A DNA stretch of 64,000 nt from Escherichia coli (GTDB lineage Bacteria; Pseudomonadota; Gammaproteobacteria; Enterobacterales; Enterobacteriaceae), in assembly GCF_016026235.1 (NCBI RefSeq), contig NZ_CP065614.1. The stretch is one strand, 5' to 3'. Within the stretch, counting starts at the first letter, position 1, and each line of letters begins with the position of its first letter. Made by a program: the position numbers. Positions 15,001 to 21,000 of the stretch are shown here, piece after piece.

Positions 15001-18000
15001 GCTCGTTTTGCGCCAGATGAGGAAGTCACTGCATTTTCTGTCTGCGACATCTCGCCTCCTCAATACTCAAACAGGGATCGTTTCGCAGAGGATACTACAG
15101 TTTTTTGAAATCAGCGACTTGAGAATTGTGACGAAGATCTGTGTTGGCGCACAAATCAACGGGGATTACTGTCGTTTAATGTGATTTAAACTGTGAAATA
15201 GTATGGTTTTCAGTTATGGAAACGCCGGGAGCGGGGAAAACTTGCTTTTTCCCGTTTCCGGGGTTGGACAACTGAGCAACGCGAAGGCGTCAGCTACGAT
15301 GTTCCGGGGACTGCTGATCAGCCCCTGTTGTATTCAGCCATTCTCCGGTCATCTGCAGCAGTTTTCTGGCATCGTGGCTTCTGAGCAACGGAATACCAGC
15401 CTGCCTCAGAACCTCTTCCAGAAGAATATCCCGGCGTCTGCGTTCCGGTCGTAAATGGCTGGCATCATCCAGCTCTACTGCTGCAACAATACTGAACGAA
15501 CGCCGCTCAACGATAACCACATCAACATGCCACTGAGACACCATCCTGAATAACTGCCACCACTGGCGTGATCGTGGCCGGATATTCCCGTTCAGCTGGA
15601 CGATATCCGCGACCCGTACCTGCGGACACAGATACCACCGCTTAAAATCAGCGGTGTGCGGGTTGAACGTCCAGGGCTCACCCGTGCACTGGAAATACTT
15701 CGTGAAGGCGACACACTGGTTGTCTGGAAGCTCGATCGTCTGGGGCGTAGCGTAAAACAGCTTGTTGATATGGTTGGTGAACTGCACAAACAAGGTATTC
15801 AGTTCAAAAGTCTCACAGACGCTATTGATACAGGAACACCGGCGGGGCGTTTCTTTTTTCATGTGATGGCCAGCCTTGCAGAGATGGAGCGAGAGTTGAT
15901 CATCGAACGTACCCGGGCCGGGCTTGATGCAGCAAAGCAACTCGGCCGTAAAGGTGGGCGAAAACCCAAAATGACCAGTAGCAAAATTGAATCGGCTAAA
16001 AAACTATTAGCCAGCGGTATCCCTCCCAGAGACGTAGCTAAAGATCTCGGTGTTTCCGTACCAACGCTGTATCGCTGGTTGCCAGCATCAAAAAATTCTT
16101 AGAGCACATTCAGGAAATTACGGTTTTCATGCTCCACAAATAGTGAAACCGTAAGTTTCTGTTCAAATGCTCCCGCTGGTCCCGCTTCATATCCACAATT
16201 CTGAACAGTCCTTTCATAAAACTGACTTCCCTTTCTGTCAGCAGCGTCTTCTGACGTTGCCAGCATTCACCGCTGGACAGTATTCGCTCTGCATCACCGG
16301 TCCGTATACCTGCCGCATGCAATTGCATCAGCAAAGGAGAATGCTGATTTACACTTCTGAGGATAATCCGGATAAGTAACGCTGCAATAATCAGAACAAT
16401 GAGAATAAAAATAATCAACTTCATTATTTATCTGCTCCTGGCAATTAATTATGCTGAGTTATTACCTTACATATTTCCATATCTCTTTTGGTATCCTGTC
16501 ATATAACTTTCCGGTGATTAACTCCGCTAACCGGTGGTCTGCTGCTGAATTAAATGATTCACGTTCACTGTTTGATAAACTGTCTCTGTTTTTATGAATA
16601 ATTTTTTCCAGCGTATTGACTGATGAACATCGCCGTAACTGATACAGCCATTCCTGTTTTGTTTTTGCCATTTTTATTCCCGCTGAGAACAGATGAATGA
16701 TAAGATTGCCATCGCTTTATTTACGGCGTCTCCATATCCAGGGGGGAACCGGATCAGCATCTGACCAGAGCCCACGTTTTTGTTGTCTGGCTTCGTTCTG
16801 AAGGACAGGCAGCACGGGATCTGTGTTGTACTGCTCATATACCCAGGCAGCCCCGGCCCGAACCATAAACTGATTAATATTCATTCCGTCTGGTGCATAA
16901 ACCTGCCCGAGAATACGACCATAGCGATCTCGCTGAAAATATGTGACGGTAACCGTTTTTCCTGCAACCAGTGATTTCATCATGTCCGTTGACCACCGAC
17001 CATAATCCTGTTTCTTTTCCGGTGCATCAATATTTACCAGCCTGATCCGCACCGCCTTCAGTGAGTCCATTACCTCGATGGTATCACCGTCCAGTACACG
17101 AATAACCCGTCCATGAATATCTGCAGACAATACCGGCCATGAAAAGATAAATAATACCAGTGGAATATATTTCCTCATGTTATTCTCCATATCAGATAAA
17201 TGGCACCTGTATTTCAGGCATCCTGAATATTGCAGCACACATTGAACAACACCTTATTTTGTGAAATTAATCACAAAATATAAAAAATCGACTTAATGCG
17301 GAAAAGACTCTGTGCTACTCAGAACTGTCCGGTCATACTGCCCGACCGGATATTAAGAAGCAAATCACATAAACTCCTTTCAGCCTTCTGACTCCTGGAG
17401 TAATGAAGGCTGCTTTTTTCGTTACACCCTTCCCCGGCAGCGCCGGTGGCAGTGTTCAGCCCTTTTCCGGGCAAACTGCTGCCAGTCTGTCCTGGGCGCA
17501 ACACCGGCAGCCCGTCGCCATGCTTCTGCCGCTTCCATCCAGCGTCCACTGACTTCCAGAATAACGGCCCGCCCGCCGGCACGCTGGTAACGCCAGACCT
17601 GGCCGTTCCGTGAACTGTTTCTGAATCCATTCATTTTCCTGTCCCCCTTTAGTTGTCAGTATTATTGTGATAAATAATTCAGTGGACTGGCTTCCTTTCG
17701 GGTTCGGAAGTTATTTCCTTTTAAGCCTTATTTCCCTGCCTCCTCTCTCTGGGGAGGCTTTTTTTATTTCTCATCAAGCACGGCCTGAAGTTCTGCCTTT
17801 ATCCTGTTCTGGCGACGAATTTTCGCCAGACGCGCTCCCGCATACGCTTCCTCCTCCTGAGAAATATGCTCCGTCACATACCCTTCCGTGTCATACCGGC
17901 AGGCACCGGCTTTCATGGCACACAGATAGCTTTCTGAACGGGTGATGGCCTTCAGCGCCCTGCGCAGTTTTTTATGCGAGAGCGGGATATTCCGCTGCGC

Positions 18001-21000
18001 CACGTCTTCCAGTAACACGTCCCGGATACCGCAGGCCAGAAGCCGGGGCGTGTCACCGTCAAATAATCCCGGCCACCAGGGCTTCAGGGTATTCACAGCC
18101 TCATCCAGCGTGGGCAGGTTCAGATAAATGGACAGCGCCTGTCTGGCCTGCGCTTTTTTTGCCGCCAGCTCTGCTTCACGGGCCGCTTTCCCAGCCAGCT
18201 TCTGCTTTTTCACCTTCCACTTTGGTGGCGTGGTGACATTGATGATGGTTTTCCGGCTGCGGACAGGCGCTGTTCCCTCTGTCTTCCGCTTCAGTGTCAG
18301 TACCGGTCGCTTCTGCTCTGTCATGCTGTGTTCTGCCTCTGACGAATCATCCTCTTGCGGCCAAAGATACCACACCCGTCACAGCGCCAGAACGCCCAGC
18401 ACAGCCAGATGACAGGCATAGAACGTCGGGAAAAAGTCTCCGGGCCAGAAACGGGGTAATGATTTTCCGGCACACAACACCAGACCAACGGTCAGCACCG
18501 TCATCACAAGACCGGCCACCGCCGCTGCATCACTGGTGGCAAGGTTAAGCGCCGGAATAACAGCCAGCAGGCAGGCGACCAGCGCCAGACGTTCCGCTCT
18601 GTCTTCCGCCCGGTACAGCCAGTTGCTGACTGCCAGCATCAGCAACCCGGCAATACCGTAACTGGTGCCGGACAAAGGCCCCCACAGGGCCATCAGGAGT
18701 ATGGCCGCTGCTGTACGCCACCCACTGCGCGTTTCACACCACGTCAGCACCTGTGCCGCCACTGCAAAGGCAAACAGGATATTCCCCTCATACCAGGGAA
18801 AGCCTGCCAGATAATATGCGAACTGGGCAATAATTCCCCATCCCCACAGCCGGTTAATGGCCGGTTGCCGGATATGCGCATGACGGGACAGATTCAGCCC
18901 CCACACCAGGGCAAAAAGCGGAAAGGCTCCTCGCCCGGCCAGAAACATCCATTCCTGCTTCAGCTGGAATATCAGATTGATGTGGTCCAGTACCATCAGC
19001 ACCAGTGCCACCGTTTTGATGATATCCCGCTGTCCGGGTGACCAGACCAGAAATGACTGCAACCAGGTATCGGTCCGTGCAGCCAGTGAATCGTTACGTG
19101 TCGTGTTCGTGTTATCCGTTGTCATCAGTATTTGTCTTCCTGTATCAGTCTCCGCCCGGGGTTTTCTCTTTCTGCAGGTCACGAACCATATCCCGCTCCA
19201 TCTGCTGCAGACGCTCCTGCAGCAGATTTTCCCGGGCAACCTCCCGGACCGCTTCCCGCTCCCGTTGTGATTCACGCAGCACACTCTCCGGCAGTGCGGT
19301 TTCCCGTTCAGAAGTGGCAGTCCGGTCACGTTCCTGCCCGGCAATATCCCTGACAGCCAGCTCTGTTTTGCCGTCCGGCAGGTCAGGTTTGTTCTCTGCC
19401 ATTTTTCTGACAATTTCATCTGCGCGACGTTCCGTTTCACGGCGGATGGCCTCTTCAGCCTGCCGCTGTGCCAGTACCTCTGCCGTGACCGGTTCGCCAT
19501 TTCCGGCTCCCGGCTGGACGCTGTTGTCCGGGATATCCCCCCACACGCGGCCACCGGTGATGGCACCGGGATTCCACGGACGGCCTTCACCGGCGATTCT
19601 TACCACCACACCACTGTCAGGATTATCACGGGCAATCCGGACGCCATCCTGCATATTATCAGCCAGCAGGCTTTCTCCGTTACGGCTGCCCTGCAGGGCC
19701 ACGAACTGCGCATCCCCGCTGCCTTTTACCCGACCTTCACCGCTGAATCCCCGCAGCCCGTTTCCGTCATCCGTGGTCAGCGGGTTCAGCCAGATACCGG
19801 CGGACTTGCCGTTACGGTCAAACGCCGGCAGTGCCACATACGGTTGCGGATATTTACGTCCCGGAGCAATAAACCGTGCAGGACTGTCTCCCCCGGCCAG
19901 CCCCGCCTGACGGAGAACGGCACGGCCTGCCGCCACGTCCCGCAGCTCCCGCGCCGTACTGAACAGCCGCTCTGCATTCATGACCTCCCGGTCCGGTTTC
20001 GGCTCAAACACATCGTGGGCAGTTCCTTTCTGTACGGCATTGTTGATGGCATCCGTCCAGCCCTGACGGTTATCGGTGTACACCTGCACATGCTGTTTCA
20101 TACGCGACAGGGCCACGTAGGCTGACTCAAAGCCGGCCATCAGTTTCCGGTTACCTTCCGTGCCTTCAAGCGCAATGGCAAAGGTTTCACTTGCCCCCTG
20201 CGCACCGTGAGCGGTGATGGCATAGGCCAGGTCAATATGTTGCTCTGCCTGCTCCTGGCCGGGGCGAATCACCCGGGTCTGCTGTCCGTCCGACAGCGTG
20301 ACACTGTCACCGGAAACCGCTGTCACCGTCCAGACGCTGTTGGCCACATAGCCGCACTCCCGGTCACTCTTCGTGAAGCGCATCCGGTCACCGCTCCCCA
20401 CCCGGATGGTGTCCGGAGTGTACAGTGTGACGCCTTCAGCCACCGCCTCCCGGGGCGAAATCAGCCGCGTGTTACCTTCCGCATCCTCCAGGGTTATCAG
20501 CCCGTCATCCTTACTGATACCGGCAATCCGGTGATACACATTATCCACCAGGGCAAGTGCGTCCCGATGTGTCTCCCAGGTGGAGAGACGACGCAGCTCC
20601 CCGTCGCGTATATTCGCTGTGTTCAGGACAGGCACCATGACCTGCTCTTTTCCCAGCTCACCGGCCTTTTCCCGTGCATCATGAATCATGCTGTTCAGTA
20701 CGCGCCGGTCCTCATTCAGGTGCGTGACAATCAGCGTCTGCTCCCGTGCTTCCGGTGTCCTGCCGGTATAGTCGCGGACAATGGCCTCATACAGTGTCAT
20801 GGGGACATCCGGAAAAGCCTCGCCTTTCTGCATCGCCTTCTGCTGCGCCTCTGCCAGTTTCGCTTCCTGGCTGTGACTGAACTCCGTCACGGAGTGCTCC
20901 GGTGCCCATGCGCCCTCCAGACGTGGCACCTGAGACGGTTTCACACTCTCAAGCCCGGACAGTGCCCTTTCCACATCCCGGTTAATCAGGCTGTATACCG

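Follow-up and report, generated by a model that had tools for sequence, protein, structure and literature searches.

The hallmark of FinOP fertility inhibition in F-like plasmids is the stabilization of the antisense RNA FinP by the RNA chaperone FinO, with TraJ synthesis and transfer repressed 100- to 1000-fold. In the FinOP systems of R100/R6-5, R1, ColB2 and pSLT, finO follows traX as the final gene, and finP is antisense to the traJ leader. We observed the same arrangement in a stretch of 64,000 nucleotides of Escherichia coli DNA (contig NZ_CP065614.1 of RefSeq assembly GCF_016026235.1; this whole stretch is called the window hereafter), together with the FinO domain structure and the two-stem-loop FinP with a GACA spacer found in F-like plasmids. 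In contrast to those plasmids, the tra operon under FinOP control is broken in the window. An earlier note on this DNA had read the coexistence of intact finO and finP with a decayed tra operon as a sign of selection to keep the pilus and surface-exclusion genes silent. We consider it probable, instead, that the window carries a standard FinOP circuit on an F-like plasmid of the invasion plasmid (pINV) type, at an early stage of a tra decay driven by insertion sequences (IS), and that finO and finP are intact because of timing and target size and not because of selection.

The finO coding sequence lies at 17764-18324 on the minus strand (186 codons plus stop, with the ATG at 18324 and the stop codon at 17764-17766) and encodes the RNA chaperone of the system. 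Using tblastn, R100 FinO was aligned over 186 of its 186 residues with 94% identity (E=1.7e-110) and with no stop codon or frameshift. The earlier note was thus right to call the gene uninterrupted, and the inactivating mutations that it had named as evidence to the contrary were looked for on closer alignment and not found. The FinO protein contains the FinO_N domain (PF12602, 134 bits) and the ProQ/FinO RNA-binding domain (PF04352, 94 bits), can be matched to the entire 152-residue chain of the FinO crystal structure 1DVO (E=4.5e-93), and is identical to the annotated FinO of enteroinvasive E. coli (EIEC) FDAARGOS_945 and of Shigella dysenteriae ATCC 12021. The gene occupies the distal end of the tra operon, 54 bp after traX (18379-19125, minus strand, ending at 18379-18382), which is itself intact by full-length tblastn match and immediately upstream of finO. 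R100 has orf286, an alpha/beta hydrolase gene, between traX and finO; by comparison with the R100 gene map, this gene is absent between the two in the window. At codon 45 of finO (approximately 18190-18192, minus strand), the window encodes glycine and the seven other aligned alleles encode glutamate. The only finO change private to the window is synonymous and affects the adjoining codon 44.

The finP gene was found at 52974-53052 on the plus strand, as an antisense RNA of about 79 nt (Rfam RF00107, 99.2 bits for a gathering score of 45, E=6e-19). It faces, in full complementarity, the 5' untranslated leader of traJ (52975-53085, minus strand; Rfam RF00243, 120.3 bits, E=3.2e-20), which is the FinP target and includes the traJ ribosome-binding site. 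The FinP-like RNA that the earlier note had described opposite the traJ leader is therefore confirmed, 34.6 kb from the interval to which the note had attached it. FinP has the expected architecture, with stem-loop I, a GACA spacer, stem-loop II doubling as the terminator and then a U-tail; its predicted fold has the two canonical stem-loops and an energy of -38.5 kcal/mol (z=-7.3 relative to shuffled sequences), and the terminator-like hairpin corresponding to stem-loop II (53012-53046) is followed by GATTTT. A consensus scan detected a putative finP promoter (TTGACG-17 nt-TACGAT, 52939-52967, plus strand) within the first codons of traJ, where the promoter of FinP is expected. Base for base, the stretch is the same as in plasmid F, and so is stem-loop I; we infer promoter activity at this position. 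The same scan detected a putative P_J promoter (ATGACA-17 nt-TATATT, 53090-53118, minus strand, 10 of 12 consensus matches) just upstream of the traJ leader. The traJ coding sequence (52291-52980, minus strand, 229 codons plus stop), whose product activates P_Y, matched F TraJ with 98.2% identity over residues 1-228 of 229. The P_J-like promoter, the traJ leader and the traJ open reading frame are thus all intact, upstream of P_Y and traY. Neither finO nor finP is a chance match.

The loop of FinP stem-loop II differs in each of the plasmids compared (the window, F, R100, p14EC007b and LR890263), with conserved stems; it reads GGUGAUAAC in the window, GUUCACGUC in F and GGUCGCUC in R100. We considered whether this variant loop could define a novel regulator and rejected the idea, since a loop that differs in every plasmid compared corresponds to the known allele specificity of FinP. 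In the PLSDB collection, only three EIEC pINVs matched the traJ/finP region of the window at 99% identity or more.

The steps of the FinOP mechanism are established by work on F, R1 and R100. Applied to the window, FinP would be transcribed from the promoter located inside the start of traJ, and loop-loop contacts would pair it with the leader of the traJ mRNA, so that TraJ translation would be blocked. FinO would bind stem-loop II and the 3' tail of FinP, shield it from RNase E and speed up duplex formation. Without TraJ, P_Y would stay off and the expression of traY-traA and the downstream genes would be low (for reviews of the FinP/FinO/TraJ/P_Y circuit, see PMC7690428 and PMC5102898). Since finO, the finP promoter, both stem-loops, the traJ leader, traJ and P_J are all undamaged, the residual P_Y-driven tra transcription is expected to be repressed. 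The part of the earlier note that predicted this repression is retained on these grounds; that finO is expressed and that the repression works in the window is an inference.

To find out how far the tra operon has decayed, all the Tra proteins of F and R100 were compared with the window by tblastn and the breakpoints were mapped by blastn. The operon is decayed, as the earlier note had stated, but the decay consists of three IS-linked lesions only, with no point-mutation pseudogenes. The first lesion is an ISEc60 element of the IS4 family (49876-51171, minus strand; the transposase has a DDE domain, and ISEc60 is annotated in the relatives) in traL, of which codons 1-71 of 103 remain (51172-51384, minus strand, breakpoint at 51172). 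Beside it, a deletion of about 3.3 kb has removed the 3' end of traL, the whole of traE, traK and traB and most of traP, and tblastn of TraE, TraK and TraB gave no match in the window. The deleted interval corresponds to positions 10355-13690 of the locus in pCFSAN029787_01 (CP011417), the pINV of EIEC O96:H19 strain EF432 (CFSAN029787), which has ISEc60 at the same site of traL without the adjacent deletion. The second lesion is an IS66-family element with Pfam IS66 transposase domains (37719-40484, plus strand), inserted precisely where trbE and traF overlap by 8 bp. It is flanked by an 8-bp target duplication (37711-37718 and 40485-40492), and both flanks map to positions 19091-19098 of F. 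After this insertion, the start codon of traF is kept and trbE has lost only its last two codons and gained a short extension. The third lesion is an IS91-family element (24729-26442, minus strand; Pfam Y2_Tnp and Zn_Tnp_IS91) in traD, which was matched in two pieces. It splits traD after approximately codon 625 and cuts off the C-terminal 92 or so residues, including the TraM-binding tail.

The other genes of the operon are preserved. We observed intact copies, all on the minus strand, of traM (53171-53554, 127 codons, 98.4% identity to F TraM over its full length) and, as full-length tblastn matches, of traY (51797-52198) and traA (51399-51764, encoding the pilin), which are the first P_Y-driven genes, and of traI (19145-24415). 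More generally, traV, traR, traC, traW, traU, traN, traF, traQ, traH, traG, traS, traT, traI and traX and the trb genes are of full length and without small inactivating mutations. Since F cannot do without TraE, TraK, TraB and a full-length TraD, the transfer apparatus of the window is certainly non-functional. The ISEc60 deletion junction had no match in PLSDB or in the set of complete E. coli genomes, where the best coverage reached 85%, the close relatives have no IS66 element at trbE/traF, and traD is unbroken in FDAARGOS_945. Because the junction is unmatched in these collections and the IS66 and IS91 insertions are absent at those sites in the relatives, the lesions look recent. Two further Rfam matches were observed inside tra genes, AS-traI within traI (RF02873, 104.8 bits, 21490-21566, plus strand) and AS-traG within traG (RF02874, 105 bits, 32565-32650, plus strand). 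These antisense RNAs were first described from plasmid pHK01 and are present in the pINV relatives too.

The top matches of the window are the pINVs of EIEC and Shigella. Between 40 and 64 kb the window is 99.4% identical to pCFSAN029787_01, and the part from finO to traG has 99.9% identity to the EIEC plasmid of FDAARGOS_945 and 99.8% to S. dysenteriae plasmids. A RepFIIA-type replicon under CopA control adjoins the tra remnant, about 3 kb from finO, with the CopA antisense RNA at 14577-14666 (Rfam RF00042) and a repA open reading frame at 13635-14504 that matches the annotated RepA of the relatives. Virulence genes of invasion plasmids (ospC2, msbB2/lpxM, virK, icsP and sepA) were recognized from the matches of the window and from the neighboring genes in the relatives: positions 8316-10230 are 99.8% identical to the ospC2 region of pSB4_227 (Shigella boydii), the right end of the window (62497-64000) runs collinear with IS630-msbB2 in pCP301 (Shigella flexneri), and sepA, icsP and virK are near the corresponding locus in the relatives. 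Judged by these matches, the window is part of an F-like plasmid of the pINV type known from Shigella and EIEC, whose ipa-mxi-spa entry region would lie outside the window.

Several other features were observed around these genes. The IS91-family element is present as three copies or part-copies (6442-8162, 11243-12726 and 24729-26442), one of them inverted relative to the others, and these are potential substrates for deletions or inversions across the segment from the replicon to finO and traI. Just downstream of finO, an AS-pc02 match (Rfam RF02876, 182.8 bits, 17342-17525, plus strand) overlaps, in antisense, the open reading frame of a small ANR-family regulator (17422-17634, minus strand); AS-pc02 was found at 177-183 bits in all four of the pINV loci examined. 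The leading region contains a group II intron (56493-58792, plus strand) with domains D1-D4 at 56493-56642, domain V/VI at 58716-58792 and an open reading frame for a reverse transcriptase/maturase of 557 amino acids at 57046-58719, as well as an isolated second D1-D4 fragment at 61515-61633.

As to the evolutionary claim of the earlier note, the probability that three hits placed at random in about 33 kb all leave finO untouched is P=0.95, and it is P=0.88 for finO together with the traJ/finP region. In accordance with the reading that we favor, three recent IS events would have struck large targets and missed the 561-bp finO and the 79-nt finP by chance. The preservation of finO is no better than that of the other undamaged tra genes in the window. 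The comparison of finO integrity across related plasmids, which the earlier note had proposed, indicated that an intact gene is the default: of the 5000 plasmid records that match best, at least 4929 (approximately 98.6%) have finO over no less than 80% of its length, and the gene was annotated as an intact coding sequence in 59 of the 60 best pINV-type records. No Shigella sonnei pINV was among the 60 best finO matches, no dedicated check having been made for this species. In a published survey of 256 F-like plasmids, all the group A plasmids were finO+ except F itself (PMC5102898). Overall, the retention of finO is not evidence of selection, since chance alone predicts it.

A test of purifying selection on finO within the pINV clade was discarded as without power, because only four sites are variable there (two nonsynonymous and two synonymous). 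Between distant F-like finO alleles, the ratio of nonsynonymous to synonymous substitution rates (dN/dS) is about 0.15; the FinO family as a whole is thus under ordinary purifying selection. The divergence of traI as a neutral yardstick (2.8% between the window and pCP301, for about 0.5% in finO) was also dropped, as the differences are clustered in blocks, which reflects recombination mosaicism and makes the comparison invalid as a rate test.

The S. flexneri and S. boydii pINVs (pCP301, pWR100 type and pSB4_227) bear directly on the alternatives. They share the backbone of the window, namely the RepFIIA replicon, hha, nuc, the ANR-family regulator, finO, traX and traI, and their finO is intact and 99.3-99.5% identical to that of the window. 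However, pCP301 and pSB4_227 lack the segment corresponding to approximately 24.4-62.5 kb of the window, from traD to traM with oriT, the leading region, traJ, finP, traA, traS and traT. Their loci run from a traI/traD remnant directly to IS630-msbB2, with traX intact, and no match to FinP or the traJ leader was found within 20 kb of finO in either plasmid (the loss of the tra region in Shigella pINV loci is also covered by PMC6489325). In these plasmids, finO is an orphan without a cognate target nearby; finO therefore persists with or without a target to silence. The traI genes of these plasmids (17542-22795 in the pCP301 locus and 18494-23771 in the pSB4_227 locus, against 19145-24415 in the window) differ from that of the window by about 2.6-2.8% in clustered blocks, which suggests a recombination mosaic. 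They contain frameshifting indels of 7 and 10 bp in pCP301 and of 7 bp in pSB4_227, and the traX and finO genes beside them are intact and at most 0.7% different.

The persistence of an orphan finO could indicate that plasmids of the pINV family keep FinO for a function that does not involve FinP or their own traJ, acting on another FinP-like antisense RNA or repressing the transfer of F-like plasmids in trans. The candidate targets would be a replication or copy-number RNA of the pINV or of a co-resident plasmid, and incoming or co-resident F-like plasmids. The intact finO of pINVs without flanking traJ or finP points in this direction, and the survey of F-like plasmids called the independent deletions that leave only traI-traX-finO "puzzling" and described Yersinia group B plasmids that are finO+ without traJ (PMC5102898). 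Moreover, the FinO of Salmonella has a second small RNA as ligand, RepX, and sets the copy number of a plasmid other than its own (PMC8136791). FinO is also not allele-specific, in contrast to the FinP loops compared above. Such a role would explain the survival of finO in the Shigella pINVs that have no flanking finP or traJ. However, neutral persistence fits these data as well. The 5.3-kb traI of the Shigella pINVs has acquired only one or two frameshifting indels per lineage, so that only 0.1-0.2 hits are predicted in the 561 bp of finO. In addition, finO is so placed relative to the essential RepFIIA replicon, about 3 kb away, that large deletions may simply stop short of it, and no alternative FinO ligand was identified. 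We consider the retention of finO for such a role unlikely.

A second possibility is that the circuit is present but non-functional, finO being untranscribed or its product defective, with tra controlled by H-NS and IS polarity. Several observations weigh against a working circuit and are shared with this alternative. No consensus sigma-70 promoter was detected in the approximately 1 kb upstream of finO, although this null result is uninformative because weak promoters escape consensus scans, and a literature search for finO transcription data returned nothing usable. The operon is interrupted upstream of finO, in traD, by the IS91-family element, which could be polar on any read-through into finO. 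Compared with most of the aligned alleles, FinO of the window has the substitutions E45G, A163G and D167A. E45G places a glycine in the long free-standing N-terminal helix, a change carried by the window allele only among the eight aligned, although the same protein is found in EIEC and S. dysenteriae. The N-terminal helix of FinO is needed for its RNA-duplexing activity. Finally, traA mRNA is detectable by reverse transcription PCR in EF432 (PMC7283534), the closest relative, whose finO is 99.8% identical by base and whose finP is identical. In EF432, the repression is leaky at best, as in normal FinOP+ plasmids. In contrast, the core ProQ/FinO domain and W36 are unchanged, and the traX-finO arrangement without orf286 is also found in plasmids typed as conjugative. 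Moreover, FinO represses P_Y, and its own expression in normal repressed plasmids must therefore not depend on that promoter. A dead circuit is on balance an improbable account of the locus.

The selective reading itself would run as follows: expression of a broken tra operon (propilin, TraS, TraT and other membrane proteins) might be costly or expose antigens, so that loss of finO would be counter-selected. The intact traY, traA, traJ and P_J are consistent with this, as derepression would yield propilin and other membrane proteins, and the only base change in finO relative to the closest relatives (99.8% identical) is synonymous. A strong selection against F-type conjugation genes in Shigella has also been argued from the survey (PMC5102898). 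The data presented above nonetheless go against it: finO escapes by chance with the high probability already given, is nearly full-length in almost all the best-matching F-like records, and is equally intact in pCP301 and pSB4_227, whose flanks contain none of traJ, finP, traA, traS and traT. The variation within pINVs, two nonsynonymous and two synonymous sites, carries no signal, and the three IS insertions are likely polar on the distal genes in any case. In EF432, with its nearly identical finO and identical finP, traA mRNA is still detected (PMC7283534). F-type pilus assembly requires TraE, TraK and TraB, whose genes the window has lost, so that it has no pilus to silence, and traT has its own promoter and is partly TraJ-independent. 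Retention of FinOP by selection for silencing is thus very unlikely, and this part of the earlier note is not upheld.

Taken together, these results support the annotation given in the earlier note and indicate that its evolutionary part was over-interpreted. Published work already covers FinOP, its occurrence on pINV plasmids and the way in which IS elements break down the pINV tra region step by step (PMC5102898, PMC7283534, PMC6489325). The wider question, already raised in the literature, is why an orphan finO persists in many tra-deleted plasmids, and the window is uninformative on this point because its finO still has a target.

Among the described plasmids, the pINV of EF432 is like the window at 99.4-99.8% identity over most of the tra and leading regions, has an identical finP and traJ leader over the aligned stretch and shares the insertion point of ISEc60 in traL. 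Unlike the window, it retains traE, traK, traP and an uninterrupted traD. Beyond the EF432 state, the window has lost the 3.3 kb next to ISEc60 and carries two more elements, one of the IS66 family at trbE/traF and one of the IS91 family in traD, and it thus adds one intermediate, EF432-like with three extra lesions, to the series of pINV tra decay. Plasmid F resembles the window in its traM, traJ and traY, which are of the F allele type in the window (93-98% amino-acid identity). With respect to fertility inhibition, the two are opposites: in F, the tra operon is intact and finO is interrupted by IS3, so that the plasmid is derepressed, whereas in the window it is finO that is intact and the tra operon that is disrupted.

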